DNA of 64,000 nucleotides. Source: Desulfatiglandales bacterium. Lineage in GTDB: Bacteria; Desulfobacterota; DSM-4660; Desulfatiglandales; Desulfatiglandaceae. The stretch lies in assembly GCA_963662465.1 (NCBI GenBank), contig OY759599.1, positions 800,001-864,000 on the forward strand. Reading direction: 5' to 3'. The notes under the pieces were generated by a model. The model did not search any database. It had not been told where the DNA came from and was given only the letters and a program-made list of their open reading frames with translations. The translations under genes and the position numbers were made by a program. Shown one piece after another: positions 37,936 through 57,909 of the stretch (position 1 is its first letter; each line of letters begins with the position of its first letter).

Positions 37936-38097
37936 GTTCAATCCTCCTTCTTTGTGCTTGTTGAAGGGAGTATGGCATGTTAATGTTCCATAGTACGGAA
38001 TGAAGAGTGGCTATTTTTGATAAAGTTCGACAGGCGCTTGAAATGTTTTTGAGGCCCATCGGTATTGTGGCACTCCGTGACTTTCGAAAGGTCGTTT

Positions 38098-39375: not shown

Positions 39376-39723
39376 ATGAAGCCTTTCAAAACGTCTTCGC
39401 TCAACAAAAACGAAAGAAGCGCTATTCGAACTGCTGATGAAATACTCAGAAAGCAATTCCCTATTGACAGTGTAATCCTTTTCGGTTCAAAAGCTCGGGG
39501 CGATTCAGATGCTCATTCAGACATTGACTTGCTCCTCATAACGTCCCGACCCCTTCATTGGAAAGAAGAAAAGTCTATTATCGGGGTACTGTTCGACATT
39601 GGTATGGAATATGATGTTATTTTCAGCCCGTTGTTTGCCTCTGGGGATGAGTGGGAAGGTGGTATATTTACCCAATTCCCTGTTTACGAAGAAATCATGA
39701 GAGATGGGGCCATTGTCGCGTGA
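39376..39723 (+). CDS. Minimal nucleotidyltransferase (MNT) antitoxin
   Basis: LFGSKARGD...SDIDL motif. Confidence 0.9.
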   Translation: MKPFKTSSLNKNERSAIRTADEILRKQFPIDSVILFGSKARGDSDAHSDIDLLLITSRPLHWKEEKSIIGVLFDIGMEYDVIFSPLFASGDEWEGGIFTQFPVYEEIMRDGAIVA

Positions 39724-40058
39724 GCCGGCAGATTATCATGGACTATTGGATGGAAAAGGCGCGGGATGACCTTGCATCCGCACGGGACAATTATACGTCA
39801 GGCAGATATCAGAACGCCGTGAGGGATGCCTATTTTGCCTGTTTTCATGCTTTTTCATCAGTGCTCATAGGAGAAGGGAGAAAATTCAAAAAGCATAAAT
39901 AAGTTCGTTCCATGCTGCATAGAGATTTCATTCGGGTAAAAAAACTTGATGCATCCTGGGGGAAACATTACGACTGGCTTTTTGACAACCGCCACAAAGC
40001 AGACTACCGCCCATTGGTTCAGTTTGATCCTGATCAAGTCAGGGAGGTAATTGACAGA
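39720..40058 (+). pseudogene. HEPN-domain protein with in-frame TAA at 39900 and truncated 3' end
   Basis: GTG start overlapping the MNT stop; AYFACFHA, KHK*V, RHKADY. Confidence 0.8.
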
Positions 40059-40879
40059 GTTCACGAATGCGGGTCATCCGGTAAACGGTATCAAGGCTCT
40101 GGAGCACACCACTGTCAGGATTTTCTCCTGCGGTTTCGACAATGGCCGCGGCTTCGGGCAGTGCGCTGAAAGCGGATGGATTTTCAAGCAAATCCTGTAA
40201 CCACAGGTCCGGTTTTCCAGGGTAATGAATGATCCGGGCCAATTCGGCCGCAGCAAGGGTATCTTCACGATCGACCCACAACCTGAGACCGGCCATCACA
40301 GTCCTGATCTCGGGCGTGGAGAGAAGTCCTGTTCTAGGTAGAATGGCTCTTATGTTGATGCTTTCAAGTGCTTCGGCCACCTTTTCGCAGAATTTGTTGG
40401 TTCGACAGAGGATGCCGATATCTCCCGCTTTCATCCTCCTGATTACCCGGGTTTCAGGGTCCCTGACTTTTGCTTTTGTGTTCCGAAGCAGGGCTTGAAC
40501 ACCGCCCGCAATGGCTGAAGCATCAAGGTCTTTATTACGGGTGTCCAGTTCCCACCATTCCATGAAGTGACCCAGTTCAGGAGGGTTCGATTTTATGGAG
40601 GACTTTAACCTCACCCGTTCCTTTGGAATACCGTGAGGCTTAAAGGCGCGAACGAATATTTCCGAAGTAATGCGTACCAGGGGAGGGCGACTTCGCCAGG
40701 ATTTGTTCAGCGTTTCGGGGGAGTGGTCCTTATTTTTCAGAGTTCCTGGTAAATGACCTTTACGCAACTTAACTGTTTGAAATCGTTATACTGGAGCTTC
40801 TCATAATTTCGTGTGCATTTCAGATTTTAGTGCAGCGTAACTAGCTGAAAATATTAGGTGGGGCAAAATATTTTTTTTA

Positions 40880-40908
40880 TTGACAAATGAAAACTGAAAA
40901 ATTATCTT
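40880..40908 (+). promoter_or_regulatory. Sigma70-like promoter of the transposase (probably leaderless mRNA)
   Basis: TTGACA-N17-TATCTT, 6 nt before ATG at 40915; no RBS. Confidence 0.6.
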
Positions 40909-40914
40909 CAGACC

Positions 40915-43182
40915 ATGATTGTCAAAACAGAAAAAATTAGCGACCTATCCATATGGACCGAGCGGGATTGGAAGGAAAAAATCACTGTTACGGTTTATCA
41001 TGAGTATCGTCCTGTCGTCAGTTTCGATCCTGGGAAGATAAATGATAGGAGACTCGCTGCCGTACAACTTGTCGAGCTTGGTTATTGTAAAAACCGGGTT
41101 GCCGGTAAAATCTGTGGGTTTCACCGCAATACGGTTGGCAAACTGCTTCGCACCAAAAGACTTTTAGGTGTTGAGGCCATATTTGAGGACAACCGTGGTC
41201 CCAAGGCTCCCTGGAAATATATTGGCAGCATTCGCAAAACCATCAAAAAACTTATCCGCGAGAATCCTGACTGGACTGACCAGCAGATTGCAAATGCCGC
41301 GGAAAAGCAAACTGAAACGACTATTTCGAGAAGTGCTGTAGCTCGTATCAGAACCGCGGACCAAGATGCAGAAACTGAAAAGCCTACAAAGCATGACTTG
41401 GAGCAACTGGCTAAAATTGCGGATAGTATTGATTTGAAGCAACACGACGAGCGACAGCTTTCTTTCAACTTTGAGGCTGATTCTGAGTTCAAAAAGAAGG
41501 TAGATGAATTTGCTGATGAGGATACACCCAAGCCACAAACCGATACAGATAAAGTATTCCTGGATTATCTTCAACAGGGACAACGCAATGTCTTTGCCGG
41601 CATGCTTCTTCACCATCTGTTTTTAGATCATATCAACTTCCCAAATGCCTTTGATTTGCCTTCTTATTCCAATAATATGTATGATAATTATGAAGTGATG
41701 GAAACTGTCCTTTTCGGGTTGAACATCGGGTTGCCATCTATCGAATCCCATAAGCTGGTCAACAGTAGGGACATGGGGCTTTTGCTGGGACGAACCAGTT
41801 CCCCCGATGAGACCACTATTCGGTTGCGTTTAAAACAGATGGCCGAGTTCAAGCCCTCAGAGAGCCTGATAGATTATTTCGCAAACCTGTTTCTATCGTT
41901 GGGGTTCATCAACCCAGAGGTGTTTTTTATCGATGGGCACTTCCTTCCCTATTATGGACTGAAAGTTCTATCCAAAGGCTACCATACCGTGAGACGAATT
42001 GTCATGAAAGGAAACGAGATTTATGTTGTCAGCGACCTTGACGGGAAGCCTTTCTTTTCAATTACCGAAGGGTGTGATATCGATTTCAGGCCGATCATCA
42101 TAAGAGCGGCCGACAAGATAATCAGCCTGGGTGTCGACCGCCCCATTGTGGTTTTTGATCGCGGTGGTTATGGTGTTCACTTTTTCAGTCAATTATCGAC
42201 AAGGGCTGACTTTATTACGTGGGCCAGGTATGTGAAAAAAGATGAATTGAAAGACTTGGAATATACGAGCTGCTTGATGTTTAATGGGAAAAGATATCTC
42301 ATTGCCGAGAAAACAAAACTGATTCGTGAATCGATTTCTACAGCTGCCAAAGAAGGCCGAACAGAGGCAACTTCGACAGAAGTACGTATGGTTGTTTTCA
42401 AGGAATTGGACAAGGATAGACCTGTGGCAATATATACCAGCAATCATCAAAAGCCTGCTCCTGATATTGCCGCATATATGCTTTCACGATGGGGAGAGTC
42501 TGAAAACTTTTTCAAAGAGATGATGTCCCTGTACAACTTCAATTATCATCCCGGTTATGATCTTAAAGAACTTGAAGAACAGCCTCTTGTAGATAATCCT
42601 GAGGTAAAAACAATCAAAAAAACGATCAAGGGAATTAAACAAAAGATGGGGCAATTGGCGCTTGCAAAACAACAAACAGAGTCCAAAATAGAAGCACGAA
42701 AAGATCTTCGTCTTAAAAAAAAGCTAAACACGCTCCAGGAAGAGATAGAGAAATACGACAAAGAGCTTGACGGTTTTCAGGCAGCCTTAAAAGAAATGCC
42801 TGACAAAGTATCGATAATTGAAGTGCTGAAAGGCAGACCAATGAACAAGGCAGATCTGGAGAAAAAGAAGCTCTACGACCTGATACAAATGATTGCCTTT
42901 CACTCACGCGAGCATCTGGTTGGCCTGTTCCGTTCATGTTATGATGATCCGCGGGATGTGAAACAGATCCTGACAAAGGTCACAAAACTCCCTGGTTATG
43001 TGAAATTAGTCGGGAAAACACTTGTTGTGCTTTTAGATTGGATAGAGGACAAAAAGCATCGGAAGGCAGCAACAAGATTTTGCCATCTGATAAACACTAT
43101 GTCGCCCAAATTGAGAGGTCGCATGGAGTTCGACCTTTATTTTCGCATCTCCTCAATCCCTCAAGTGGGTTATTGCTGTTAA
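40915..43182 (+). CDS. Large DDE transposase (755 aa)
   Basis: N-terminal HTHs; IDGH...FDRGG...RWGESENFFK catalytic pattern; lies inside the IS ends. Confidence 0.88.
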   Translation: MIVKTEKISDLSIWTERDWKEKITVTVYHEYRPVVSFDPGKINDRRLAAVQLVELGYCKNRVAGKICGFHRNTVGKLLRTKRLLGVEAIFEDNRGPKAPWKYIGSIRKTIKKLIRENPDWTDQQIANAAEKQTETTISRSAVARIRTADQDAETEKPTKHDLEQLAKIADSIDLKQHDERQLSFNFEADSEFKKKVDEFADEDTPKPQTDTDKVFLDYLQQGQRNVFAGMLLHHLFLDHINFPNAFDLPSYSNNMYDNYEVMETVLFGLNIGLPSIESHKLVNSRDMGLLLGRTSSPDETTIRLRLKQMAEFKPSESLIDYFANLFLSLGFINPEVFFIDGHFLPYYGLKVLSKGYHTVRRIVMKGNEIYVVSDLDGKPFFSITEGCDIDFRPIIIRAADKIISLGVDRPIVVFDRGGYGVHFFSQLSTRADFITWARYVKKDELKDLEYTSCLMFNGKRYLIAEKTKLIRESISTAAKEGRTEATSTEVRMVVFKELDKDRPVAIYTSNHQKPAPDIAAYMLSRWGESENFFKEMMSLYNFNYHPGYDLKELEEQPLVDNPEVKTIKKTIKGIKQKMGQLALAKQQTESKIEARKDLRLKKKLNTLQEEIEKYDKELDGFQAALKEMPDKVSIIEVLKGRPMNKADLEKKKLYDLIQMIAFHSREHLVGLFRSCYDDPRDVKQILTKVTKLPGYVKLVGKTLVVLLDWIEDKKHRKAATRFCHLINTMSPKLRGRMEFDLYFRISSIPQVGYCC

Positions 43183-43236
43183 AGCCTTGCTCATCGTTTC
43201 AGCCATCCTACGCAGGGTATCGTGTTTCGACCACAT

Positions 43237-43261
43237 GTAGGGGCGAAAAATCTTTCGCCCT
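43237..43261 (+). repeat. GTAG-type REP-like palindrome inside the IS
   Basis: GTAGGGGCGAAAAATCTTTCGCCCT; near-copy at 58047-58071 on the opposite strand. Confidence 0.65.
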
Positions 43262-44579
43262 AATGGCCGAAACAATGATCAAGGCCGCTGTTGAACTAAA
43301 TGCACAATTTGAATTGAGAAAAAACGTCATTTACTATGATGTCTGATTTTTGGACTGTTTCTCAAAAATGCTTTCAATGCACGCATCCATCAAGGCCGGA
43401 TCGGTTCCTCGAAATCCATAGATGGATTGTTTCTGGTCACCGACCCAGACTGTTTCTTTGGAGAGTGATGCCAGTTTTAGAAGGATGGCCAGCTGGATGG
43501 GACTGGTGTCCTGAAATTCATCAACGAGCAGGAGGTCTATGCTTCCTTTCAGGTGTTCTTGAACGGCCGGTTCGTCTAAAAGCGCCAGTGCCAGGACTTC
43601 CTGGTCTGAGAAATCCATCACGCCCCAAATCCGTTTGTGCTCCTGATATGCATTCAAGGTCCCAATGGCCGTATCAAACACCAGCGTTACCGCTTCAACC
43701 AGATCCTTCTTTAATTGCGGGTGCCTGTCATGGCGTGAGGCAACCTGGTTCAGTATCTCAATGTGTTCCTCTGATTTTTTGCCCACGTTCAGACGGTTCA
43801 ATCGCAACCAGTCAGACCAGGACAATGTTCGTCCCTGCCGAAGCATATTGAGGCAAGCAGTCGCCTTTTGAAGGGCACCGGCGGTAACTTTGGTGGTGTC
43901 CTCTTCTGTATCCACATTATTGATAAAGTCGGCAAGTGCGGATTCCAATTTTTTATCTGGATTTCCTTCTTTTCCAAGCGGTTTGCCCAGTAATTCCAAT
44001 ATGCTCTCGGTACTTATCTTTTTGGACGCTTCAAGCGCTTGGGTATCCAAAGCATTATAGCGGGCCAGTTTAATGACCGATTCCACGGTATCAACCCACT
44101 CAAAAGCTTCAAGTCGGCTTTTAAGGTCTGTAAATCGACTGGAGATACCCCCCGTCATCACTGAAGACATGGCGCGTTTTAACTCACGTTTTGCGGCTGT
44201 TTCGTCCAGGACCATCGTTTCGGGAAAAAGCCCTTTTTCAAACACAAAGTCCATTACCAGCCCGCTGCAGATGGAATTAACGGTGCCCAGGCGAGCTGCG
44301 GCCAATCGGTTGGCTTCACCCGTCAGCCCTTCTTTAATAAGCCGTTGCCGAACCCGCTCCTGCAATTCCGCGGCTGCCTTTTTGGTGAAAGTGGTGGCAA
44401 TCACCGCTTCCGGTCGGACTTTCTTAGAAGCGATTTTTTCCTGAAGGAGGGTGGATAACCGATAGGTCTTGCCGCTACCGGCACTGGCGGTAATGATGTG
44501 AATGTTTGTCATGACGCCTCTTTTAGTACCTTATCGCCTGGTTTACTGTCACAAAAAACAAGAAAATCGCTATATGGCA

Positions 44580-44749
44580 TCAGTTGTCAGTTGTCAGTTA
44601 TCAGTAAAAGCATACCCATAACATATTGAAAGTATTTGTACAAATCTGCACATAATTGTGAAGACCTCTTCCATACTTCCAAATCCTCAAATTTCAAAAT
44701 AACCTCCAGTGCTGACAACTGACAACTGACAACTGATAACTGACAACTG
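44580..44749 (-). pseudogene. Four-helix-bundle (23S rRNA IVP-like) gene remnant flanked by inverted heptamer arrays
   Basis: GGAGG then TTG at 44697 gives KFEDLEVWKRSSQLCADLYKYF; (TCAGTTG)x3+ at 44580-44605 and (CTGACAA)x5 at 44712-44749. Confidence 0.75.
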
Positions 44750-44779
44750 CGGCTCTGCCGCCTCAGATAGTTTGGGCAA

Positions 44780-47353
44780 TTAAGCACTGAAGGCCTGTCC
44801 GCAAAGAACGGAAAGGTCGCAAAACTTGCATGGTTCCAGGAAAATCCGGTCATCCACCAGTTCACTTTCGGGTGGGCCGTCAGGATCATTCCCACAGGCT
44901 TTGACGCTTCCTTTCCGCAACTCAGACCAGATTTGGTTAAAGCTGTTTTTGAAAGCGTTCCAGGTTTCCTTCGGCGTGGGGCCTTCAATCACGTGGGCAT
45001 CCGGAAAGGCTTCCGGATCAACCGTTATCAGATGCCCGGCTTTCAGCATCAGGTATGCCACAGGCGGAAATGCAGCAGCCTCTTTTTGGCGAACCAGATG
45101 ACCATAAACGGCCAGTTGCAGCCCGACACCTGAAGCCAGTTCACCATGCCTATAATTTACACCGCCTCGTTTAAAATCAATGACGGCTCCTGATTCCTGC
45201 AATACCAGATCAGGACGACCTTCAATCTCGATTCCTATGGAGCGTGCTTTAAGGCTGTATTCTTTTTCAACGGAACGTATGGTGAACCCTCCGGTCTGAA
45301 GCATTCGAAAGAGTTCCAGTGCGGCTGTTTTCACAGACCGTTTCACTTCAGCCCTTAGATCATCAAACCCGGGTTGAAAAAAGGAAGCGGCCAATCGTGG
45401 GCCTTCAGTGTCAAAAATGGACAGGGCCGTTTTTACGGCGGCGTCAGGCTTTTTGATATTCTGAAGCAGCGCCCGAAGCAGAATTTCATGTATCAGCCAC
45501 CCTTCAAGGGTTTCAGGGGAATCCAGAGTAGCGGTGGTGCCGCCCCAGACATTACCCAGATATTGAACCACCCATTTGAAGGGACACGAAACGAGGCTGG
45601 TAAGACTATTGGGGGATTCCTGCTTCCTCTTGGAAATCAAGTGAGGCCCCACTTTCCATTCCGCCACCGGTTCGGGAAGTGCTTTAAAATCCCGCTTTTT
45701 CTTTGCGGGACTTCGTTCGAAAATGAGTTTTTCCCGTTCCAGTTCCTTCAGCCTGGCGCTGTCTTTGACTTTTCCGGCCAATTCATCCCAGAGGGGGTGC
45801 GGGTACTGGGCTTCACCGTCGAGGCCTTGTCGGGGACAGACCAATATCAGATTTTTGCCGGCAAACATGAGAGGACGTTGCCATCTCTCCGCGGCCCAAA
45901 CGGCCTCATCTCCAGGGGTAGGTAGCAAAACGCCTTCTTTTCGAAGCGCTGCACGCTCCTGCGTGGTCAGCAGGTCCGAAGTTATACCGGGTGCCGTAGT
46001 TCGACTGAAAGACCACCAGATCACCTTCTCAGCTTCCCCTGTGATACATTCAGGCGCCCCCACTGTTGCCGGACCCGCCTGCGCTTCATAAAGCGGCACC
46101 GTTCCGCTGCCTTCGGTGATATCGTGAAGCATACGGCGGATCTGGGGGGCGGTAAAATGGGTCAGCCCTGAGATCTCAACGATTCGCCGGCAGTTTTCCA
46201 ACTGCGATGTCAGCGCCTGCCATTGATGGCCGGGTTCATCTTTCGGCATTCTTCCCCGGGTCCACGATCTTAAAAGATCGATACGGGCTTTGATTTCCGT
46301 TACCGGGTATCGATTGCCCGTAAAAATCGAGGCGAAGATGGTGCTAATCCTCTTTTTGAGCCGTTCACGGTCGCGCTCGTTTTCAATGGCGTCAAGACCC
46401 TTTTTAAGCGCCGAATTCCATTCATCAGAGCCGACAGCGGGGTATCTCTGGAGCGCACGGGAAAGCCTGCGGGCGATCCCCCGTGGAACCGGGCTGGTGG
46501 GCAATATGAGCAGTTCAAGCGCGCGCTGCGGGTCCGGCGGGTTCCAGCCCATGGCAAGGGTGAGGGGAAGGATTTGCAGCAGGGCATTATCAAAAACCGG
46601 AATCCCCGCGCCCGTTGTGGGCAGGCCAAAACGATAAAGCGCTTGATCCAGAATACTGTCGGGACCGATGATAACGGTTTTGTTCGCTTGCCTTCCCGTG
46701 GAAAGCCATGCAGCGATTTCGTTGGCCGCCGTGCCGCAGGTGGCGGGTCTCAGCAGCTGAATCGAGCCGTCGCCTTTGGGTTTGAATGACGATTTTGTGC
46801 ATGCTGCCAGATCGCCGGCGGATTTAACGGGTTTCAGTTTTTCTTCAATTATCTTTGTGCCGGCCTTTTTTAGAGACTGAATGGTCGTTTGTAAAACGGA
46901 AGGGAAACGATCAGGTGGTTCCAAAAGGGTCAGTTGTTGAACGGCGTTATTGCCGGACATGAGCGTTTCCGCCACCATCAAGAGACGGTCTGGAAATCCG
47001 GGAGATGCTTTTTCGGTAACTTCCGCAAGGTCCCCCAGCCGTGTGCTGACCGGTTGGAAGCGCCAGCCGTACATTCGAAGCTGATCCCGCCAATCCAGGA
47101 CTCTTTTGGCGGTTCCGAAAGGGTCCACCTGCGCGGAGCGGCTCCAGAATCCGGATACAGCGCGAATCGTTGAAACCAGTTCCGCGGCCCGCAAGGCGTT
47201 TGGGACGGGTGGACCGCTCAGACCAGTCATGGTTTCAAGCAGGCCCAGCAAGCCGGATGGGCCGAGCCAGATTTCCCCGGAAACAGCATTTCTATCCTGC
47301 AAGGGACCGGGCCAGTACCCGCTATCAAAAGCGGGGTCGAATGTAATTTTCAT
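44780..47353 (-). CDS. AddB-like PD-(D/E)XK nuclease with Fe-S cysteines
   Basis: SCPFKW...G.LIH, GRPDLV...IDFK, QLAVY, CKFCDLSVLC; directly upstream of the UvrD-like gene. Confidence 0.82.
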   Translation of the reverse strand: MKITFDPAFDSGYWPGPLQDRNAVSGEIWLGPSGLLGLLETMTGLSGPPVPNALRAAELVSTIRAVSGFWSRSAQVDPFGTAKRVLDWRDQLRMYGWRFQPVSTRLGDLAEVTEKASPGFPDRLLMVAETLMSGNNAVQQLTLLEPPDRFPSVLQTTIQSLKKAGTKIIEEKLKPVKSAGDLAACTKSSFKPKGDGSIQLLRPATCGTAANEIAAWLSTGRQANKTVIIGPDSILDQALYRFGLPTTGAGIPVFDNALLQILPLTLAMGWNPPDPQRALELLILPTSPVPRGIARRLSRALQRYPAVGSDEWNSALKKGLDAIENERDRERLKKRISTIFASIFTGNRYPVTEIKARIDLLRSWTRGRMPKDEPGHQWQALTSQLENCRRIVEISGLTHFTAPQIRRMLHDITEGSGTVPLYEAQAGPATVGAPECITGEAEKVIWWSFSRTTAPGITSDLLTTQERAALRKEGVLLPTPGDEAVWAAERWQRPLMFAGKNLILVCPRQGLDGEAQYPHPLWDELAGKVKDSARLKELEREKLIFERSPAKKKRDFKALPEPVAEWKVGPHLISKRKQESPNSLTSLVSCPFKWVVQYLGNVWGGTTATLDSPETLEGWLIHEILLRALLQNIKKPDAAVKTALSIFDTEGPRLAASFFQPGFDDLRAEVKRSVKTAALELFRMLQTGGFTIRSVEKEYSLKARSIGIEIEGRPDLVLQESGAVIDFKRGGVNYRHGELASGVGLQLAVYGHLVRQKEAAAFPPVAYLMLKAGHLITVDPEAFPDAHVIEGPTPKETWNAFKNSFNQIWSELRKGSVKACGNDPDGPPESELVDDRIFLEPCKFCDLSVLCGQAFSA

Positions 47354-47445
47354 GATGCCTCGATTGGGAATTCATGCCAAGCAGATAAAAATAACGTCTC
47401 CAATCTGCAGCGTGGCTTATGACGTCTGCGGGGAATAGGCCTCCA

Positions 47446-48294
47446 TTAGATTGCCTTTCTACAATCCACGGTTGACGGGCCGTCCTCCAGATTGCCAACG
47501 ACCGGTTCCGCGCCGTAAAAGATCACATCAACCCTGTTGGTAACCCGTGAAAATGGCGGCATGTCCAAAAATCTGAACGTTGTCCGTTCAACTTTCAAAT
47601 CAGGGTTCTTTCTCGCTTCATGCTTTTCTGGAAGGTTTTCCATTTCTTCCGTTGTAAACTTACGATACACCCTATGCTTTTGGATAAATGTTCCTCGTTT
47701 AAAAAAGGCGGGATAATCATTCCAGTTTATACCTTTTTGCCATAGCATTTCCTGCATTTCGGTACCTTTCTTTCTGTAGAGTGCCTTATGCGAATAATAA
47801 CACCGAGCCGCCATGGAAATACTGTTTTTCGTAGCGTCTAATTCTCTCCACAAAAATGTATTGGCTGCCTCTTCCAATGTTGGGACCTGCCATGCGCGAC
47901 TATCAAACAGAGCAAGCCGGTTCTTTTTTTCAGGAATATATTCCGAAATATGCCCATTAAAATAGGCTGTTGCCATCGATGCCAGAATAGATACCATTTT
48001 TTGAATACGCCGGTCAAAAAATATCCGGCTTTTATATTCCCCGCTGTACCACACAAGGTTGATTTCATCTGACTGCGTATAGCCCATATTGGCTTGTGTC
48101 TCTTGCACAAGATAGCGGGTGGTTTGACACATCAAATCGACAAGGCGCTTGTCATAGGGGCGCTCCAGGCCTTTTGTAAATCGACTGAACGATTTCCCGT
48201 CGATACGTGCGCAGACAGGAAGTAATGGAAGAAAACGTCTTGCCCCTTCCACTCTTTCATATTCCTTCATTCTATCGCCAAAGTTTCCCATCAT
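47446..48294 (-). CDS. thg1: Thg1-like 3'-5' polymerase / tRNA(His) guanylyltransferase family
   Basis: RIDGKSFS.FT, YTQSDEI, FDSR, WRE.DA.KNS, KRG motifs. Confidence 0.92.
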   Translation of the reverse strand: MMGNFGDRMKEYERVEGARRFLPLLPVCARIDGKSFSRFTKGLERPYDKRLVDLMCQTTRYLVQETQANMGYTQSDEINLVWYSGEYKSRIFFDRRIQKMVSILASMATAYFNGHISEYIPEKKNRLALFDSRAWQVPTLEEAANTFLWRELDATKNSISMAARCYYSHKALYRKKGTEMQEMLWQKGINWNDYPAFFKRGTFIQKHRVYRKFTTEEMENLPEKHEARKNPDLKVERTTFRFLDMPPFSRVTNRVDVIFYGAEPVVGNLEDGPSTVDCRKAI

Positions 48295-48433
48295 TCTTTC
48301 TCCAACTTAATTTCAGCTGAAATTAAACGCTATCTTCGCATCACTCTCAATACACATGGTTCAATCCGGCCCCTGGTCTATGGGAAAATGATCAGACCTA
48401 GCCCAACCCTCTTCCTTTTATTCCAACCTGCTT

Positions 48434-50613
48434 TCAAAGCCTTGGATCCACCGGCTCGCTTTCCAGTGCCAGCACGCCGAAAACTTCAGGTCGGTCACGG
48501 AATGGACCGGCCAGCAATACCGCCGATAGGCTTCGATGTAACCCTCAACCGATTTCTTCCGGCTTTCGATTTTGTCGAGCAGGTTCGGAAGGTCAAACTC
48601 AAAATTCAGGCTTTCCGATGGAACCCAAAACCCCGTTTCGAGGTCTGTACGGCCAAGTGTCTTTTTGAGCGCATCGGCGGCCGCGTCCAATGAAACCGTT
48701 GCCGCGGCGCCCACGGCGGCATATTGCGATTGAATCAGATCCCGGGCTTTTTCCGACCACGGCATGAGCTCACAATCAAGACATACCCATTTTGTCGAAA
48801 ACGCATCCCAGAATTTTGAAGCATTCAAGGCATTGGCCATTCGCTCCAGAAGTTCTTTTTCCATTTCCCGGCTATTGAAGAATCGTCGGCCCGTCCGGGT
48901 GTAAACGATGCCAACACCATCGTTTTCCACGCCAAAGTGTTTTGCCGCGGCCTCTTCGTTTTGACAGAGGACCACAACAGCGCGGGACCCCATGTGCTTT
49001 TCCTGGCATATCACCCTGGGGATGCCTTGTGATCGAAAATAGGCGAAACCTTCCTCCGGATACTCAAGATATCCTCCCTGTTGGCTGGTCTCGGTTGGAG
49101 ACATGGTCGGCGGCAAATATATGAGCCATTTTGGATTGGCCGCGAATCGGCTCATGACTTCAAGGGCAGCCATTGATTGTTCTTCCCTGATCGTCACGTT
49201 TCGGCGCAAACGCGTAGAGATGAACCGCTTTCTGATGACGTCTTCCGCTTCGAGCAAGTCGTCATATTTCTGCTGCACCGTCAATGGTGAATCAGCGTCC
49301 GCATCTGTTTTCAGGGAACGTACCGGCTCACAATACACTTTTTTTGCTTTGACTGAGACCATCTCCTTTTCAGGATACCGCAACGCTGTGAGCTGACCCC
49401 CAAACACACACCCGGTATCAATGTTGATGGTTCTGTTCAGCCATTCCGGTGTTGGAACGGGTGTATGGCCGTACACCACCGTAGTGTGTCCGCGGTATTC
49501 CGCCGCCCAGTTATATCGGACCGGCAACCCGAATTCGTCAGTCTCGCCCGTGCTTTCACCGAAGAGGCAGAAATCCCTGACCTTGCCGGACCCCCGCCCC
49601 TGCATTTCCTCCTTAAGCCCGGCATGTGCGACCACAAGTTTCGCATTATCGAGCAGGTAGTGGCTCACAAGCGCTCTGATAAATGTTTTCGTTTCCTCCA
49701 TAAAAGCGGACCGTGTATCCGTCGGAAGGGCATCTATTTCTTCAAGGGTTTCAGCGAGTCCGTGTGCCATTTGGACGTCCTTGCCGTTGAGTTTTTTCAT
49801 GAGTTTGATGTCATGATTGCCCGGCACACAAAGGGCGAAACCTGCCTTTACCATATTGAACACCAGTCTGATGGTATCGACGATTCTGTTGCCTCTGTCC
49901 ACGAAATCCCCGAGGAAAATGGCGGTGCGCCCTTCCGGGTGGGAAAAAACAGGCCCGGCCATGGGGCCTTCGTTGGTCCTTATGAAAACCGTGTAACCGA
50001 GCTTATCCAGCAATGCTGTCAGCTTATCATAGCAGCCGTGGATGTCCCCGATGATATCAAATGGCCCGTGCAGATCGGTTTTGTCGTTCCAAAGGGGAAC
50101 GCGCTCAACTGTGGCGCTGTTGACTTCCTCTTCGGAATTGATTTTCCATACCTGCCGGAAGCCTTCTCTTTTAAGCGCCTTTCGCCGTCGCCGCAACTGG
50201 GAATTCTGTTGGCGAATGACGCGCCTTCCGAAGTTCCTGTCAGGGCGGTCTTTGTTCCTCATTTGACAAAGATTCTCCGGCAAATCCAACACGATGGCCA
50301 CCGGAAGCACATGGTATTGCCGTGCCAATGCCACCAGTGGTTTGCGGGCCTCCATTTGGACGTTTGTGGCGTCAATAACCGTCAATTTGCCGGCTTCCAG
50401 CCGTTTGGCCGCAATGAAGTGCATGACTTCAAATGCCGCCGAAGTAACCGAGAGATCGTTCTCATCATCGGAAACAAGGGCGCGACAGTCATCTGATGAT
50501 ATCACCTCCGTCGGCAAAAAGTGCTTTCTCGCAAAGGATGACTTGCCGGCGCCGGAGACCCCTATCAGAACGACAAGCGACAGCTTGGGGAGCTTTATGT
50601 CAATTTGTTTCAT
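48434..50613 (-). pseudogene. pnkp: Bacterial polynucleotide kinase-phosphatase-ligase Pnkp with an internal deletion and frameshift in the ligase domain
   Basis: Kinase GVSGAGKS; phosphatase GDIHG/GDFVDRG/GNHD; ligase EKHMGSR and DCELMPW. The authentic tail FGVLALESEPVDPRL* follows out of frame at about 48480. Confidence 0.9.
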
Positions 50614-52015
50614 GATCGATGCTCTTGGCTGAAAATGCACATCTGAGTCGGCGCGCCAAGTTTATCATCAGCGGCCCCGACCGGGAGGAACTTTGTGGTA
50701 TAGTTATATGTGTCTGCCATACCGTTGGCCCATGCCTCAAACTCATCGCGAGTCCATTCAAAACGATGGTCTTTGTGACGCAGCTTTTCAGGGCCAATCG
50801 TCTCCCACAGGGAGTTGTACTCATGATTCGGCGTTGTCAATACAATGAGCCCCGGCCTTGCAAATTCAAATAACACGCGCTCAAAAGCCTTGAGACGGGG
50901 TTGATCCAGATGTTCGATGACCTCTATTACTGCTGCCGCATCGAATCCCGCCAACCTTTTGTCCCGGTACATGAGTGAGCCGTGAAGGAGTTCAATTCGT
51001 TGTTTTTGCATGGGCGGCAAATCCTTCATGTGAAGGCGTTCATGGGCGATTTCAAGGGATCTGATGGACACATCAAACCCCATTATTTTTGTGAACTGTT
51101 TCTCTTTCAGGAGCAGCGCTAACAGCTTTCCGCTGCCGCATCCCAGGTCAACGATGGTTTCCGCCCCCGATGCCTTGAGTGCAGCGCGTACCGCGCCCAG
51201 CCGCGCTTCATTGAGATGGACCTTTTCTATCTTTTCTTCGGATGGCGCTTTGGGTTCACCGATGTCATCTTCCCCGGTCGGGTTGATTTCCATGAGACGC
51301 AAGATCGCTTCCAGCGCATAGCTCCGCAGATATTTGAGATACCGTTTGGCAATGGTGTCGCGCTCGGGGTGATCGGACAGCCAACCCTCACCTCTTTTCA
51401 GGAGTTTGCTGATTTCATTTTTATCAATGTAGTAGTGTTTCCGGTTGTCCAAAACAGGAATGAGAACGTAAAGATGGTTAAAAAGCGCCTTTACGCTGGT
51501 CGTCTTTGATAGTTCGACGGTGTAGTAAGGGCTGACGCCCCATTCAGGGAAATGCTCATCCAGGGTATATGCCTGAGCATCCACGCGGTAACCCAAAGGC
51601 TCAAACAGCCGCCTCAAAAACCCCTCCCCACCTCTGCATGGCAGCACGGAAATCTTAACGGTCAGCGGCATCGGTGTCTCAACAAGTTCAGGCCAAACAT
51701 TGCATTTGCCGTTCAATGTTTGGCCGAAAACCCGCGAAAGCGTCATGCTCATGAACGAGGAACACACATAAGGACGGTCATTTACATACGGCTCAATGGG
51801 TACACCCGTATGCTGGTTTCCTTTTCCTCGAACGAGTTCGACAGGATCCACATCCAAAAGGATAGCCAGGGTGCATTTTTCGTCGCTTGCCTCGGGGTAG
51901 AAGATATTCACGATGCCAAAGGACATTTTTTCGCCTGGCATCGGTAAGGATTTTTATGAACAAGATATCCCAAATCAGTGGCGGGTCTATGTGTTGTCGA
52001 AATGGTCAGCAGCAT
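50610..52015 (-). CDS. hen1: 3'-terminal RNA ribose 2'-O-methyltransferase Hen1, with a 1-nt frameshift in an A6 run
   Basis: True start MLLTISTTHRPATDLGYLVHKNP at 52015; shift at 51926-51931; YVNDRPY, DLGCGSG, EVIEHL, HRFEW motifs. Confidence 0.9.
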
Positions 52016-52030
52016 TGCCTTTTTTCTCCC

Positions 52031-52219
52031 TCAATCCATTCTTACCACTTTCTTCATCAATTTTTCAAAACCATCCCAATTATTATTCCGACAAAGTTTC
52101 CCCATTTTTTCTGTCTGAGCCTGTGTAGCAGTTTGATAAAATTTAACCATTTCCACAAAACCCACATTATCCGGGCATGATGCTTCCCATAAATTCTTAA
52201 CAATCTGCCTGGTCTTCAT
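52031..52219 (-). CDS. Small hypothetical protein leading the hen1 operon
   Basis: 62 aa, AGGA RBS, ends 16 nt before the hen1 start. Confidence 0.5.
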   Translation of the reverse strand: MKTRQIVKNLWEASCPDNVGFVEMVKFYQTATQAQTEKMGKLCRNNNWDGFEKLMKKVVRMD

Positions 52220-52271
52220 GTATCTTTTCCTCTATACGTGTCCCCATGCCATTCTCATGATGACCCAGTTA

Positions 52272-52463
52272 TGTGACATTTTTAGCCACATTTAAAGGAA
52301 AATTCTCAAGAAATCAAAATCTCATATTATTGAAAGATCTGTGGCTAAAAATGACACACTAAACTAACTGTCGAGTAATGCGGTTGCCTTCATGCTATCA
52401 AGCATTTCCGATTTCTTCAAAAACTTCATGATTTTTAAAAAGACTATGGCCAAAGACGTCACA
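52272..52463. promoter_or_regulatory. Three 19-bp quasi-palindromic sites in the hen1/rtcB divergent intergenic region
   Basis: TGTGACATTTTTAGCCACA (52272), TGTGGCTAAAAATGACACA (52340, 18/19 inverse match), TATGGCCAAAGACGTCACA (52445). Confidence 0.65.
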
Positions 52464-52490
52464 GTTTCAGAGTAAATTTCGGCAAATCAC

Positions 52491-52526
52491 TTGACAAAAC
52501 AGATCTTTATGGAATTTGATCTGTTT
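52491..52526 (+). promoter_or_regulatory. TTGACA overlapped by inverted repeat AAACAGATC/GATCTGTTT upstream of rtcB copy 1
   Basis: Seen directly at 52491-52526. Confidence 0.45.
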
Positions 52527-52557
52527 GATAAATGAACACATCAAGTATAGGAGATGT

Positions 52558-52849
52558 ATGCGCGCAAAAACGACCCTGATCGCCTCAGATAAGAGCTGGA
52601 TCGAAGGCGATGCCATCAGACAGTTGGAAAAAACAGCGGAGCTGGAGGGCATGCTGTCAGCCGTGGGGCTGCCGGATCTGCACCCGGGTAAAGGAGGTCC
52701 GGTGGGCGCTGCCTGCGGCACCATCGGCGGCGGAAGCCTACAAAAACATTGAAGCGGTCATTGTGGATATGGGCCAGGCGGGCCTCATCAAGGTTCTGGC
52801 CACCCTGCGTCCGCTGATAACGTACAAGATGAGGATGGAAAAACAATGA
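52558..52849 (+). pseudogene. rtcB: RtcB (PrfH-coupled type) remnant with multiple internal deletions
   Basis: WIEGDAIRQL..PDLHPGKGGPVGAA | CG | TIGGG | EAYKNIE...LRPLITYK. Confidence 0.88.
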
Positions 52850-53190
52850 TACGCCGGCTTCAGATTACATCAGGAAGAGGCCCGGAGGAGTGCTGCTGGG
52901 TGGTCTTTCAGCTGACCCATTTCCTGACGCGATTGGCCGGTCGGAAAGGGCTGAAGACAGACCTGATAGAAGCCATTCCTGGAGATTATCCCAACTCCCT
53001 TAAATCAGCACTGATCTCTGTTGAAGGATCTCAAAAAGTCAACGATTTCGTTCAACATTGGGAGGGAACCATCCAGTGGATCGGTCAAAGCCCCTTTCGG
53101 CCCAACCATAAACGCAAGAGTTGGTTTGTGGGAGTGACGACGCTGACACCCATGCCACCTGAAAGCATAAACAGCCGCGCCTTCCGCATG
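52846..53190 (+). pseudogene. prfH: Peptide chain release factor H, truncated before GGQ
   Basis: LQITSGRGPEEC, WEGTIQWIGQSPFRPNHKRKSWFVGV; no GGQ. Confidence 0.85.
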
Positions 53191-53654
53191 AACCCGATCG
53201 AAACTCCTCCAAAACCCCCGGCAGGGCTTCCACCAGATACGACGGTAGTGACAACAAGGTAAAAGATACCGGAACAGTGCCCCTCTCCATCCTGACCGAA
53301 TGGGTCAGAGAACGGATTTCCGGAAGATTCAAGATCAAAGCGGACGCACAGGGGTGATTCTTTGCGCGCCGCAAACTGGTGGATGGGGATGACCAGGTTT
53401 CCGCTCGATGTCACCTAATCGGTTTCCGTTCGATCGCCGCTTTGATAGGCTTCTTTGGAAAGATCCACTGGAAAATGCCGACGTCTAACGCTTTCTTTAT
53501 TTTTTTCTTTTACCCATAATATTTAGCTATTTTATAGAATATTTTTGGAGGTTCTGTTTTTTGTTGAGCATTCCCCTTTTTGCTGTTAGCATTCAGTTCA
53601 CGTAACAAGTATGACATTTTTGCTCACAATTTCAGAAAAATATGGAAAGGGATT

Positions 53655-53991
53655 TATGAAGGACAACAAAATCCTGTTTATTGATGCATCGGCCGAATTT
53701 GTGTGGGGAGGAAACAAAAACAAACTGAGCGATGAAAACCGCACCAAAATACTGGAAGCGTTTATCCAGCGCAAAGACATCGCGCATTTTGCCAAACTGG
53801 TAGATAGTAAAACCATTGCGGAAAACGACTACAATATCGCGGTATCCACCTATGTGGCTCAAAAAGACACCCGCAAGGTGATTGATATTACACAACTCAA
53901 CGCCGAGATTGCCGGCATTGTTGCCCGACAAAATGAATTGCGCACGGCGATTGATGAAATTGTCGCTGATTTGGAGGGAAGCCCGCAATGA
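53655..53991 (+). pseudogene. hsdM: Type I RM methyltransferase C-terminal fragment
   Basis: ILFIDAS..F....NKNKL, IAENDYNIAVSTYV, LRTAIDEIVADLE. Confidence 0.82.
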
Positions 53992-55001
53992 AAGAAAAGC
54001 AAAAAACTAATACCCTTATTTATAAAACCGAAGACGGAAAAGCGGACATTACCGTTCATCTTGAAAACGAGGATGTATGGTTAAGCCAACAGCAAATGGC
54101 GGAACTCTACCAAACATCACGAACCAATGTCGTCGAACACATCAAGCACATTTTTGAGGAAGGGGAATTGGCCGAGGAGGCAACCTGTCGGAAATTCCGA
54201 CAGGTTCAAAAAGAAGGAAGCAGAAATGTAGCACGGGAAATCCCTTTTTATAACCTCGATATGATCATTTCCCTCGGGTATCGGATTAAATCCCGTATTG
54301 CCACCAGCTTCAGGATATGGGCGACAAAACGATTGAATGAGTACATCCGCAAAGGTTTTACCATGGATGACGAGCGTCTCAAAGGCGCAGGTGGTGGAAA
54401 TTACTGGAAGGAACTGCTCGACCGTATTCGCGACATCCGCAGCAGCGAAAAAGTGATGTACCGCCAGGTGCTGGACCTGTATGCGACCAGTATTGATTAC
54501 GATCCGAACACACAAGAATCCATACGGTTTTTCAAAACCGTACAAAACAAGCTTCATTACGCGGTCAATAAACAAACCGCGGCTGAAACGATTTATTCGC
54601 GCGCCGATGCTGAAAAAGATTTTATGGGCTTGACGACCTTTGCCGGTGAGATTCCCATAAAAGCAGAAACCAAAATCGCCAAAAATTATCTGAATGAAGA
54701 TGAATTGTTTCGTCTTAATCGCATGGTATCGGCATTTTTTGACCTTGCTGAAATTAAAGCCCGGGAACATACCCAAATGCGGATGAAAGATTGGGTGGCG
54801 GAACTTGATAAATTTTCTGCAATGTATGGCAAGGGCGTGCTGCCGAATGCGGGGAAAATCAGCCACGATGAAGCCATGCAAAAAGCCGAACAAGAATACC
54901 GCCAATATCAGGCAAAAACGCTCTCTCCCGTAGAAAAAGCGTATTTGGATACCATCAGAACCGTACAGAAAAAAGCGGAGAAGAAATGGCAAGGGCCATG
55001 A
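53988..55001 (+). CDS. rhuM: RhuM family protein
   Basis: VWLSQQQMAELY, YNLDMIISLGYRI, FRIWAT, RIRDIRSSEK. Confidence 0.9.
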   Translation: MKEKQKTNTLIYKTEDGKADITVHLENEDVWLSQQQMAELYQTSRTNVVEHIKHIFEEGELAEEATCRKFRQVQKEGSRNVAREIPFYNLDMIISLGYRIKSRIATSFRIWATKRLNEYIRKGFTMDDERLKGAGGGNYWKELLDRIRDIRSSEKVMYRQVLDLYATSIDYDPNTQESIRFFKTVQNKLHYAVNKQTAAETIYSRADAEKDFMGLTTFAGEIPIKAETKIAKNYLNEDELFRLNRMVSAFFDLAEIKAREHTQMRMKDWVAELDKFSAMYGKGVLPNAGKISHDEAMQKAEQEYRQYQAKTLSPVEKAYLDTIRTVQKKAEKKWQGP

Positions 55002-55085
55002 AAAAATTATTGATGAAAACGGAGATTATATTGTTGTTAATTCAAAATTTATCTCAACTGATGGAAAAGTTAAGAAATATCGTGC
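54998..55085 (+). pseudogene. hsdS: Probable type I RM specificity subunit fragment
   Basis: IIDENGDYIVVNSKFISTDGKVKKY resembles an HsdS target-recognition segment; expected position after hsdM-rhuM. Confidence 0.5.
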
Positions 55086-55186
55086 TGACTTCCGGCAGAA
55101 CGATGGTCGGAAATGACACACTTCCCGTTTAAAAATGTTTACGATGCAACATAATGGCCCTGTTTTCTCTCAGAATACGAAAAACC

Positions 55187-55257
55187 ATTGACTTTCTACC
55201 GTTGAATATGCAAAAGACTATTGACTTTCTACATTGATGGCCGAAATGACTATCTAC
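55187..55257 (+). promoter_or_regulatory. Direct repeats TGACTWTCTAC x3 upstream of the ATPase gene
   Basis: attgactttctac at 55187 and 55220, atgactatctac at 55246. Confidence 0.5.
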
Positions 55258-55303
55258 TCGGTTAACGGTTTATAGCTAAGGATTTACAGGAAGGCATTTT
55301 TCC

Positions 55304-56617
55304 ATGAAACGATGGGTAGAAAAACAGGTGATATCCTGGAAGGATTCGTCACGCCGCAAGCCGTTGATCATTCGCGGGGCGCGCCAGGTGGGAAAGACGT
55401 GGGTTGTGGAGAATATCCTTGCCGGGCAATTTGAAAACTTTGTCAAGATCGATTTGGAAAAGCGTCGGGATTTGCATGTTCATTTTGCAGGAAATCTTGA
55501 ACCTCGAACAATACTGAGTTATCTGGAATTGGCCACGGGTCGCATTACGCCGGGTGAGACCCTCGTCTTTTTGGATGAAATCCAGGCCTGCCCGAGAACC
55601 ATCATGGCATTGCGCTATTTTTATGAACAGATGCCGGAACTTCACGTTGTTGCCGCGGGTTCATTGCTGGAGTTTGCGTTTGGCGAGATCTCCATCCCCG
55701 TGGGTCGCGTGCAATATCTGCACATGTATCCCATGACCTTCCACGAATACCTTCTTGCCATGGGCAGGGAACCCATGGCCGAATATGCGCTCCTCTCTCC
55801 GGCCTACGTTGATCAAACGGTCCAAGAGATGATCCTTCATGAATTACGGAACTATTTTTTCGTGGGCGGCATGCCTGAATGTGTCAAAACCTATCGCGAC
55901 TCGGGTTCAATGGTTGAAACCTTCCGGGTTCAGTCGGAGATACTGGACTCCTATCGTGATGACTTTTCCAAATATATGCCGGGCATTGACGCACTTTGCC
56001 TCGATGCGGTTTTCTTGAACGTGGCAAAAAGTGTTGGCGAACAGTTGAAATATGCCAGGCTTAATGATGGCCATTCGGGACAGACCAATCGCAAGGCGTT
56101 TGACCTGCTGGTCAAGGCGAAATTGATTCAGAAAATCCCCGCTTGCGATCCGTCCGGTCTGCCACTGGGGGCAACCGCCAATCCAAAGAAATTCAAGGGC
56201 GCCATGCTGGACATGGGACTCCTGCAACGGCTCTGCCAGGTGCCGGTGGAATTGGAATTGAAGCAGGAAAACCTCCTGTCCATGTATCGCGGGAAACTGG
56301 CGGAACAATTCGTTGCCCAGGAGCTTCTGGCCTGGCATAGTTCGGAGTTGTTCTACTGGGCGCGCGACGCCCGCGGCAGCAATGCCGAAGTGGACTATCT
56401 AGCCGTCCGTGAAGGAAAGATTTACCCCGTGGAGGTTAAATTAGGCACGGGGGGGAGTTTGCGAAGCCTTCATCTCATGCTTGAAAAATACCCCAATTGT
56501 CCCCGGGGGTTGGTGCTTTACAGCGGACCATACAGAAATTTACCTGATCAGAAGATCGAGTTTCTACCATTATACGGCGTGGCCGGCATCGGCGACAAAC
56601 GGCCGACCGTTGTTTGA
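55304..56617 (+). CDS. AAA_14/DUF4143 ATPase with C-terminal nuclease-like domain
   Basis: GARQVGKT, FLDEIQ, GGMPE, EVDY...PVEVK. Confidence 0.88.
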   Translation: MKRWVEKQVISWKDSSRRKPLIIRGARQVGKTWVVENILAGQFENFVKIDLEKRRDLHVHFAGNLEPRTILSYLELATGRITPGETLVFLDEIQACPRTIMALRYFYEQMPELHVVAAGSLLEFAFGEISIPVGRVQYLHMYPMTFHEYLLAMGREPMAEYALLSPAYVDQTVQEMILHELRNYFFVGGMPECVKTYRDSGSMVETFRVQSEILDSYRDDFSKYMPGIDALCLDAVFLNVAKSVGEQLKYARLNDGHSGQTNRKAFDLLVKAKLIQKIPACDPSGLPLGATANPKKFKGAMLDMGLLQRLCQVPVELELKQENLLSMYRGKLAEQFVAQELLAWHSSELFYWARDARGSNAEVDYLAVREGKIYPVEVKLGTGGSLRSLHLMLEKYPNCPRGLVLYSGPYRNLPDQKIEFLPLYGVAGIGDKRPTVV

Positions 56618-56781
56618 ATATAGTCCGGCCCGAAAAAAGGCCCCTTTTGTCAACATCATTCGCCGGGCTTGGTCGCCATTCTTATGGAAAACTTCCTTTT
56701 TCCACGGCATCCTTCATAATTAAGCATCCTTAAGAAAATCGAGTTCAACTCTTTTGTAAATACTTTAACTATAAGGATATA

Positions 56782-57909
56782 ATGGAAACTCTCAGAAACT
56801 TGTGCTCGATAAAAATAATTGCTTCCCCAAAAAATTGGATTGAAGGAGAAGCCATTAAACAACTGCAAAACACGGCAAAATTTCCCGGTATGGAGATGGC
56901 CGTAGGCTTGCCGGACTTGCATCCGGGAAAAGGGAGTCCCATCGGCGCCGCATTCTTTACGAAAAACATCTTATATCCATACCTTATCGGAAACGATATC
57001 GGTTGCGGCATGGGGTTGTGGCAAACCGATCTCAAGAAAAATAAAATTAAAAGAGACCGTTGGGTCAAAAAATTATATGCCTTAGAAAACCAACGGGACA
57101 ACGATACAAAAGCATGGTTTGAAAAAGATAATTTAAAATCGAATGAATGGGATGGTTCATTGGGCACAATCGGCGGTGGAAATCACTTCGCTGAACTGCA
57201 AACGATTGATTCCATAGAAAATACGGAGCAATTCCAAAAAACAGGATTGAGTCAAAAGCACCTTTTATTATTGGTCCACAGCGGTTCGAGAGGATTTGGG
57301 GAAGAAATACTTAGAAAACATGTGGATCAATTTAAAAGCAACGGCATACATGAAGAATCCGAAGCCGCCATTCAGTATATGAACGAACATGACCATGCCA
57401 AAAAATGGGCTTTTTCAAACAGAGGGCTCATTGCGCATCGTTTTTTAGCGATACTGGGGACAAAAGGCCATCCGGTTTCAGATATTTGTCATAATAGTCT
57501 GAGTCACATAAAAATAAACAATCATTTCGGCTGGCTGCATCGAAAAGGCGCAGCGCCTTCCGATGAAGGCTTAATCGTCATTTCAGGGTCTCGGGGAAGT
57601 TTCAGTTATTTAGTATCGCCTACCGGAGAACAAAATGACAATTGTTTTTCATTGGCACACGGTGCGGGACGTAAATGGAAACGGAGTGAAACCAGGAGCC
57701 GATTAAAAAACAAATATCCATATCAATCGTTATGGAAAACAAAACTTGGCAGCGTCGTCATTTGCAACAATAAAGACTTGCTCTATGAAGAAGCGCCACA
57801 AGCCTATAAAAATATTGAGATTGTTGTAAATGATCTGCAGGAAGCAGGGCTGATAAAAGTCGTTGCCCTGTTAAGACCCCTGATCACCTACAAAACATGG
57901 AAGCCATAA
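56782..57909 (+). CDS. rtcB: RNA ligase RtcB, release-factor-H-coupled type (intact)
   Basis: PDLHPGKG.PIG, GNDIGCG, GTIGGGNHF, HSGSRG, HN, HRKGA, HGAGR, EEAP.AYK. Confidence 0.93.
   Translation: METLRNLCSIKIIASPKNWIEGEAIKQLQNTAKFPGMEMAVGLPDLHPGKGSPIGAAFFTKNILYPYLIGNDIGCGMGLWQTDLKKNKIKRDRWVKKLYALENQRDNDTKAWFEKDNLKSNEWDGSLGTIGGGNHFAELQTIDSIENTEQFQKTGLSQKHLLLLVHSGSRGFGEEILRKHVDQFKSNGIHEESEAAIQYMNEHDHAKKWAFSNRGLIAHRFLAILGTKGHPVSDICHNSLSHIKINNHFGWLHRKGAAPSDEGLIVISGSRGSFSYLVSPTGEQNDNCFSLAHGAGRKWKRSETRSRLKNKYPYQSLWKTKLGSVVICNNKDLLYEEAPQAYKNIEIVVNDLQEAGLIKVVALLRPLITYKTWKP

Follow-up and report, generated by a model that had tools for sequence, protein, structure and literature searches.

Known RNA-repair modules in a clade-limited arrangement upstream of an accessory AddB/AddA-like nuclease-helicase pair in a decaying defence island

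RNA repair has been described in several settings. In Pnkp-Hen1 cassettes of the Clostridium thermocellum type (PMC3675462), which elsewhere stand alone or with Pol-beta nucleotidyltransferases, hen1 and pnkp are adjacent and co-oriented; Thg1 has been found beside a polynucleotide kinase and an RNA ligase (PMC2904730), phages carry RNA repair that includes Thg1 (PMC7824862), and RtcB2-PrfH serves ribosome rescue and repair (PMC9304027, PMC6514570). Among helicase-nucleases, Bacillus subtilis AddAB (PDB 3U44/4CEH) and mycobacterial AdnAB combine an AddB-like fold, a four-Cys iron-sulphur (Fe-S) staple and a RecB-type nuclease with a partner superfamily 1A (SF1A) helicase that bears C-terminal nuclease motifs. 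BrxR-type WYL repressors bind inverted repeats and repress defence islands (PMC9122601), and CapW senses single-stranded DNA (ssDNA; PMC11662680). Here we describe a locus of a Desulfatiglandales bacterium that brings relatives of these elements together; it lies in a stretch of 64,000 nucleotides (contig OY759599.1, positions 800,001 to 864,000; C1:800001-864000 of the 8.16-Mb source genome G000), which was analysed as a whole and is called the window. The modules are known, their arrangement is new and clade-limited, and the island that holds them is decaying.

On the minus strand, open reading frame (ORF) calls and family scans bore out the gene order of an original prediction made from the DNA letters: a 62-aa leader ORF, hen1, pnkp, thg1, an AddB-like nuclease and an AddA-like helicase, with TIGR04074, TIGR04075 and PF04446 identifying the three RNA-repair genes (Table 1). 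The first gene, hen1, starts 15 nt past the leader stop, and the gaps that follow down to the nuclease measure −4, 123 and 92 nt. Adjacent, co-oriented hen1 and pnkp, both above their NCBIfam cut-offs, match the known cassette, but the Pnkp ligase domain is deleted and thg1 and a DNA helicase-nuclease come next; compared with the described Thg1 neighbourhoods, the kinase-ligase is of the full Pnkp type and is accompanied by Hen1. No description of this combination, or by title and abstract of the accessory pair, was found in the literature covered; article supplements and Burroughs and Aravind 2016, which may list hen1-pnkp-thg1-rtcB clusters, lay outside that coverage. The RNA-repair modules themselves are already known, and clustering of such modules is expected.

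The copy in the window is mostly broken, as the original prediction had partly recognised: the Pnkp ligase is deleted, an insertion sequence (IS) splits the helicase, and rtcB1 and prfH survive as remnants. So far as the reading frames tell, what looks whole in the source genome is limited to Hen1, Thg1, the nuclease, RtcB2 and, within Pnkp, the healing domains; Pnkp sealing, PrfH ribosome rescue and the helicase motor are predicted to have been lost here. Ratios of non-synonymous to synonymous substitution rates (dN/dS) against relatives are 0.07-0.19 for each of hen1, pnkp, thg1, nuclease and helicase. The reading that we favour, and consider rather probable, is that of a defence island in decay, with a mobile AddB/AddA-like pair as its backbone and hen1-pnkp-thg1 as exchangeable cargo, likely under one palindrome-controlled promoter; the genes would probably share a predicted transcript and probably do not form one machine.

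Table 1. Features of the island, in window coordinates
Feature	Position	Strand	Basis
62-aa leader ORF	52031..52219	-	58% in L042 and L044, directly upstream of nuclease
Hen1	50610..52015	-	TIGR04074 623 bits, cut-off 340; 82% to G091 Hen1
Pnkp, kinase and phosphatase whole, ligase domain deleted at 48481/48482	48418..50613	-	TIGR04075 1073 bits, cut-off 750
Thg1-like 3'-5' polymerase, intact frame	47446..48294	-	PF04446 E 6.6e-32; 97% to L047
Cargo-slot junction, thg1/nuclease	47354..47445		L047 has Sir2 gene there; DNA similarity to L001 ends at 47354
AddB-like protein, 857 aa, intact; helicase-like N-terminus and Fe-S-stapled RecB-type PD-(D/E)XK nuclease	44780..47353	-	
Repeated insert with tandem 7-mers between nuclease and helicase	44526..44779		Absent in L001 and in an X5 contig
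AddA-like UvrD helicase, N-terminal piece	43347..44512	-	PF00580 E 3e-45; 95% to L001
Insertion sequence, 755-aa transposase, splitting helicase	40737..43346	+	PF21804
AddA-like helicase, second piece, truncated	40053..40736	-	PF13361; 92% to L001 helicase residues ~388-615
Three palindrome-B boxes (TRTGRC-N7-GHCAYA type), predicted operator	52272..52463		At 52272, 52340, 52445
Double-AAA+ ATPase, 741 aa, recurrent neighbour of pair	35716..37941	-	PF00004 x2
Palindrome A (TTCCRTA-N-TRYGGAA type), predicted WYL operator	37986..38000		Between AAA and WYL
HTH-WYL-WCX regulator (HTH, helix-turn-helix)	38098..39105	+	PF08279, PF13280, PF25583; 94% in L001
rtcB1 remnant and truncated prfH1	52558..53184	+	82-84% DNA to full rtcB-prfH of L048
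RtcB2, intact, PrfH-linked type	56782..57909	+	TIGR03073 482 bits, cut-off 271.8; motifs
N6-methylase C-terminal remnant, RhuM-family gene (PDC-S05-like), AAA14-DUF4143 gene (PDC-S01-like)	53611..56617	+	
Second palindrome A, then MoxR ATPase and vWA/metallopeptidase pair	59810..62794	+	
MNT-HEPN toxin-antitoxin pair, HEPN frame broken	39376..40100	+	PF18765/PF01909; PF05168 over profile 2-53 of 117

The accessory pair, compact, found in defence contexts and without a named system in PADLOC 2.0.0, is the main point of interest. An AlphaFold model of the nuclease, computed with a 97-sequence alignment, has a predicted local distance difference test score (pLDDT) of 92.5, and its best fold match is B. 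subtilis AddB (3u44_B; E 5.6e-22, TM-score 0.59), followed by AdnA and RecC. Across the 97 sequences the staple cysteines C590, C842, C845 and C851 are near-invariant and D715, D726, K728 and Y750 are invariant, so that the protein has the helicase-like body and Fe-S-stapled RecB nuclease of the AddB type. For the partner, the SF1A motor with C-terminal nuclease of the AddA type is found in relatives L001 and L048 and is absent from the window: the intact 1044-aa helicase of L001 has UvrD and PD-(D/E)XK domains, whereas the window helicase stops at about residue 615, its second piece being without the C-terminal motor motifs and the nuclease domain. Relative to AddAB and AdnAB the pair is about 300 and about 190 residues shorter, is 13% identical and scores below all equivalog cut-offs; it is also patchy, plasmid-borne and coexists with RecBCD.

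These differences bear on whether the pair could be the cell's housekeeping AddAB, a core repair operon joined by RNA-repair genes. The AddB fold, the Fe-S staple and the addB-then-addA order would suit that reading, but the helicase reaches 178.6 against a cut-off of 707.65 for addA_Gpos and 172.2 against 860.75 for a second addA model, the nuclease matches no addB equivalog model, and RecB (1040, cut-off 696), RecD (587, cut-off 310) and RecC (1057, cut-off 583) are all encoded elsewhere in G000. Moreover, the pair is broken in the window and is present in two of ten other genomes of the genus, 3/209 genomes of the order and 4/401 sampled genomes of the phylum. We regard this reading as refuted, with a probability close to nil; the pair is mobile and accessory and, in line with the original prediction, is not housekeeping AddAB. 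The nuclease tree, a quick version, contains no housekeeping AddB.

The nuclease family comprises 117 homologues; it is found in 26 plasmid records, on plasmids from Rhizobia to Lysinibacillus, and defence-type neighbours (SIR2, ThiF, restriction, WYL, SNF2, DUF6361 and Cas1-Cas4/Cas2/Cas3) occur in the four plasmid regions read (of 26) and in three phylum genomes. In PADLOC-DB 2.0.0 no named system, such as Gabija, was matched full-length by both subunits, the matches being confined to partial GajB, DruK and Cas4 domains (Druantia is the subject of 10.64898/2026.05.13.724313). Individual neighbourhoods vary: the pair lies between Cas1-Cas4/Cas2 and a Cas3 gene in L169 (G342:C1:735000-754999), directly downstream of DUF6361, an unnamed gene and a helicase in L165:12243-18419, and downstream of four metallophosphoesterase genes and a cyclic-phosphate-processing receiver gene on a Lysinibacillus plasmid (L041:3737-7518). 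An ARPP-1 domain gene (PF20208, confirmed for L004) lies near the pair in 6/82 loci (L004, L005, L006, L051, L068 and L083).

Decay of the helicase could be followed in sequencing reads, four runs having been compared with the window, among them the source-like X1 as well as X4 and X5 from two other studies. Genome-wide, the IS is present in at least 10 full and near-identical copies, and an IS-free helicase joint is seen in contigs of X1, X4 and X5. In X1 (window 40731-43346) this joint has a depth of 9.9 against about 44 for the IS form, reflecting either a subpopulation or a co-occurring relative. The nuclease-helicase gap, 27 nt in L001, is widened to 267 nt in the window because of the repeated insert, pieces of which recur elsewhere in the genome; it has no Pfam match, and a 36-codon frame within it presumably resembles the start of four-helix-bundle proteins. 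Intact copies of the pair are available in L001 and L048, the window copy being too decayed to serve as a test object.

The original prediction went further and proposed a dedicated, conserved unit that sets the AddAB-like enzyme to work with three RNA-repair chemistries against ribotoxins or phage. Linkage was examined by tblastn across 83 nuclease loci, of which 6 came from genomes, 4 from plasmids and 73 from metagenomes; five more were later added. The helicase follows the nuclease in 65/83 loci; 17 of the 18 misses end at a contig edge within 209 bases, giving 65/66 among informative loci. For RNA repair the outcome is the reverse: hen1 lies near the nuclease in none of the 88 loci (and in 0/39 with at least 4.6 kb upstream), thg1 in one (L047), rtcB-prfH in one (L048), and the lone pnkp match (L041) is 24% identical and covers the phosphatase domain only. 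Across genomes, hen1 occurs in 2/209 of the order and 4/401 of the phylum, one of these four being below the family cut-off, and outside G000 none of the 209 or 401 genomes carries both hen1 and the nuclease; likewise, no accession is common to the 26 plasmid records with the nuclease and the 19 with hen1. Eleven other hen1 loci (G091, three phylum genomes, 6/19 plasmids and one viral), of which the G091 and G390 contigs are shorter than 6 kb, have neither nuclease nor thg1, and one of them, a Skermanella plasmid, carries rtcB-prfH beside hen1-pnkp without the nuclease. Finally L001, the closest relative at 93% nuclease identity, retains the helicase-nuclease along with the WYL and AAA genes but has no RNA-repair gene within 10 kb.

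Because hen1 is linked in 0/88 loci, genomes and plasmids do not overlap and L001 has no RNA-repair gene nearby, a conserved system is not supported, and the gene-neighbourhood comparison proposed with the prediction thus found the pair unlinked to hen1 elsewhere. A weaker form of the claim survives in the closest clade, where thg1 stands upstream of the nuclease in L047 and rtcB-prfH is divergent in L048 with an AAA gene downstream. The dedicated unit is further favoured by a divergent ATP-dependent ligase gene in L042, by the phosphoesterase and cyclic-phosphate-receiver genes upstream in L041, and by X4 and X5 contigs that cover hen1, pnkp, the nuclease and the IS-free helicase. Against it, no thg1-nuclease bridge was found among the X4/X5 contigs listed, and the nuclease is absent near the 11 other hen1 loci and near 27 viral thg1 loci. 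A dedicated unit is therefore largely refuted at the family level and improbable overall. The nearest named nuclease relatives, L001 and L002, are records titled Desulfobacteraceae.

What the close relatives do share is a slot. The leader ORF has three full-length homologues in all and a remnant ahead of the nuclease in L001; it matches nothing in Pfam, NCBIfam, PADLOC or Atlas, and its dN/dS of 0.67, over 62 codons, is uninformative at this length. The slot ahead of the nuclease is empty (L044) or holds a short insert (L001 and L042), thg1-Sir2 (L047) or hen1-pnkp-thg1 (the window). Since relatives have the leader ORF and its boxes immediately ahead of the nuclease, the place taken by hen1-pnkp-thg1 is a slot for variable cargo, and the window locus is, judging by these alignments, a leader-nuclease-helicase operon into which the three genes were apparently inserted. 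The thg1-nuclease gap, across which the original prediction had drawn its single unit, is a junction, so that the second refuting condition set with that prediction also went against it: L047, ordered thg1-Sir2-nuclease-helicase, has its Sir2 gene at this point, and similarity to L001 ends at the nuclease edge of the gap. Window and L047 differ by a synonymous distance (dS) of 0.18 in thg1 (140 codons) and 1.59 in the nuclease, 74% identical between them, which indicates separate histories and a recent move of the cargo between backbones.

The arrangement could also have arisen by chance accretion in a recombination hot spot, with hen1-pnkp-thg1, rtcB-prfH and the pair as mere neighbours under separate promoters and no common regulation. 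The region is rich in remnants and duplications, the DNA upstream of the nuclease is unrelated in L043, L046 and L048, rtcB2 has a GC content of 41.7% against 54.5% for the nuclease, and the junction contains one 9/12 promoter-like match (47380-47352), in a region whose promoter count is at chance level; no terminator-like site was found there by scanning. Yet the leader ORF and boxes directly precede the nuclease in three relatives, hen1 begins 15 nt past the leader stop, thg1 lies upstream of the related nuclease of L047, and an X4 contig and an X5 contig likewise join hen1 to the leader ORF. We consider pure accretion unlikely.

A shared upstream control region, as originally predicted, is plausible because leader ORF and boxes directly precede the nuclease in L001, L042 and L044. 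The 338-nt divergent region contains palindrome B three times; further copies lie at 53610, outside the training sites, and at 55102, and the palindrome is kept in the same three relatives. Since the pattern was derived from island sites, independent support comes only from this conservation and from the 53610 site. A genome-wide SOS-like regulon for palindrome B was rejected, 128 sites of at least 12 bits comparing with 107 in one shuffle and strong sites clustering in the island only.

The original prediction overlooked a second layer, consisting of the WYL regulator with the double-AAA ATPase (35716-39105) and a MoxR-vWA pair (59940-62794), with a palindrome common to both. The strict form of palindrome A has three sites in the genome, two of them in the window, between the AAA and WYL genes and before MoxR-vWA; L001 and L003 retain it ahead of WYL. 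In its HTH-WYL-WCX architecture, upstream inverted repeat and mosaic island setting, the regulator resembles the BrxR/CapW type (PMC9122601, PMC11662680), and by this analogy it would probably bind palindrome A; it differs in standing head-to-head with the ATPase, and its targets are predicted ones. The ATPase is 90% identical in L001, 71% in L048, 42% in L050 and 41-42% in the two copies of L167, and the WYL gene has a 42% match, over its N-terminal part, in L003. In these five loci, at 30-93% nuclease identity, the ATPase and/or head-to-head WYL gene lies near the pair. AAA, WYL, nuclease and helicase are a candidate four-gene backbone, and the defence context proposed originally is upheld by the island setting.

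If the favoured reading of a mobile backbone with exchangeable cargo is right, one transcript would run from the leader ORF through hen1-pnkp-thg1 to the nuclease and helicase, and its repressor, for palindrome A probably the island WYL protein, would be released by ssDNA that arises in phage attack or from DNA damage. In an ancestor with all genes intact, the helicase-nuclease would attack an invader at its free DNA ends, unwinding and degrading them. On the RNA side, healing of cut ends would fall to Pnkp and refilling of 5' ends to Thg1, the Hen1-activated ligase would seal and methylate RNA ends, and RtcB2-PrfH would rescue cut ribosomes, letting the cell outlast ribotoxins. The DNA arm and the RNA arm would be joined by a common trigger and not by mechanism, so that attack on foreign DNA would be coupled to recovery of the translation machinery.

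Several observations weigh against the mobile-backbone reading. Most metagenome loci are short, WYL is near the nuclease in only 10/83 loci, and palindrome A was found in none of L048, L050 and L167, all of which have the AAA gene. Palindrome B is defined from the same sites that it describes, and inspection of L046 and L048 by eye did not show it ahead of either the nuclease or rtcB. Scans for promoters and for terminators gave no more than chance-level counts (20 against 19.7 and 27 against 22.2). In addition, RNA-repair genes occur in two of seven close loci and in 0/60 more distant ones (nine loci have at least 65% nuclease identity, seven of these with at least 1 kb upstream); although kin are not independent, this recurrence exceeds what pure chance cargo would lead one to expect. 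In a bolder and less likely proposal, the clade's WYL/AAA-linked AddAB-like operon is a damage-induced expression platform that repeatedly recruits RNA-end repair (Hen1-Pnkp-Thg1, RtcB2-PrfH, Sir2, an ATP-dependent ligase), ssDNA made by the helicase-nuclease switches the island on, and the pair is an undescribed anti-phage or anti-plasmid enzyme. Destroying invader DNA would then be tied to mending the tRNA and rRNA of the cell itself pre-emptively.

The state of the individual cargo genes is as follows. In the window hen1 is frameshifted near 51925; all four runs, including X1, have one extra base there, and the frame upstream matches G091 Hen1, so the frameshift most likely reflects an error of assembly, with the gene start at 52015. 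The reading as a pseudogene was rejected on this ground, and hen1 is probably whole. Pnkp aligns with a full 860-aa homologue over residues 1-692 and then, in another frame, over 845-860; since the alignment resumes only there, about 150 ligase residues (reference 693-844) are gone and the C-terminal ligase domain is incomplete. Among the lost stretches are EGMVVKP and KCRG, which we take to be ligase motifs IV and V. The deletion is also present in X1, and the pnkp of G091 runs on through the missing part. As to Thg1, the single tRNA-His gene of the source genome already has G at −1, making the enzyme dispensable for maturation, and a repair role may be inferred. Relatives of Thg1 at 43-65% identity are carried by 27 viral contigs, many longer than 150 kb (L132-L158); a phage-type link of thg1 with other cluster genes was dismissed, as none lies near it in any of the 27.

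On the plus strand, rtcB-prfH sequence is present twice, as first reported, but rtcB1, prfH1 and prfH2 are remnants and rtcB2 lies 4.5 kb from the divergent promoter. Compared with the full copy of L048, which points away from the nuclease, rtcB1 (52558-52849) has two internal deletions, and prfH1 covers only profile positions 3-110 of 200 (TIGR03072 103.8 bits, cut-off 166.65). With rtcB1 and both prfH copies reduced to remnants, rtcB2 is the only whole gene of the set. It passes TIGR03073, and prfH sequence follows both rtcB copies as in the described systems (PMC9304027, PMC6514570), from which the window differs in that no intact prfH was found in the locus or, with the query used, in the genome. 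Downstream of rtcB2 are only remnants, of prfH2 (a few codons) and of a ligase, 58103-58172 matching the ATP-dependent ligase gene of L042 at the DNA level only, with nothing from tblastn. A second decayed rtcB-prfH remnant elsewhere in the genome (L019, G000:C1:2800359-2801346) shares the promoter stretch, and an intact AAA14-DUF4143 gene runs into this remnant.

The remaining features concern the surroundings. Many Fic, Uma2, RES-Xre and HEPN genes lie beside the island (window 16499-35334 and 58187-63791). The MoxR-vWA pair occurs in 1/209 order genomes and is 57-72% identical to cyanobacterial plasmid copies, and two more, broken vWA copies lie at 27959-29392 and 33298-33996. A general partnership of MoxR-vWA with RNA ligases was considered and rejected, as no rtcB, hen1, pnkp or thg1 lies near four plasmid copies (of seven records) or one viral copy. 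Run X4 differs from the window by one base at 39866, in the MNT-HEPN pair. Another rearrangement is marked at 35455-35694, where parts of the WYL 5' end and of the MNT 3' end are present as short duplicated remnants.

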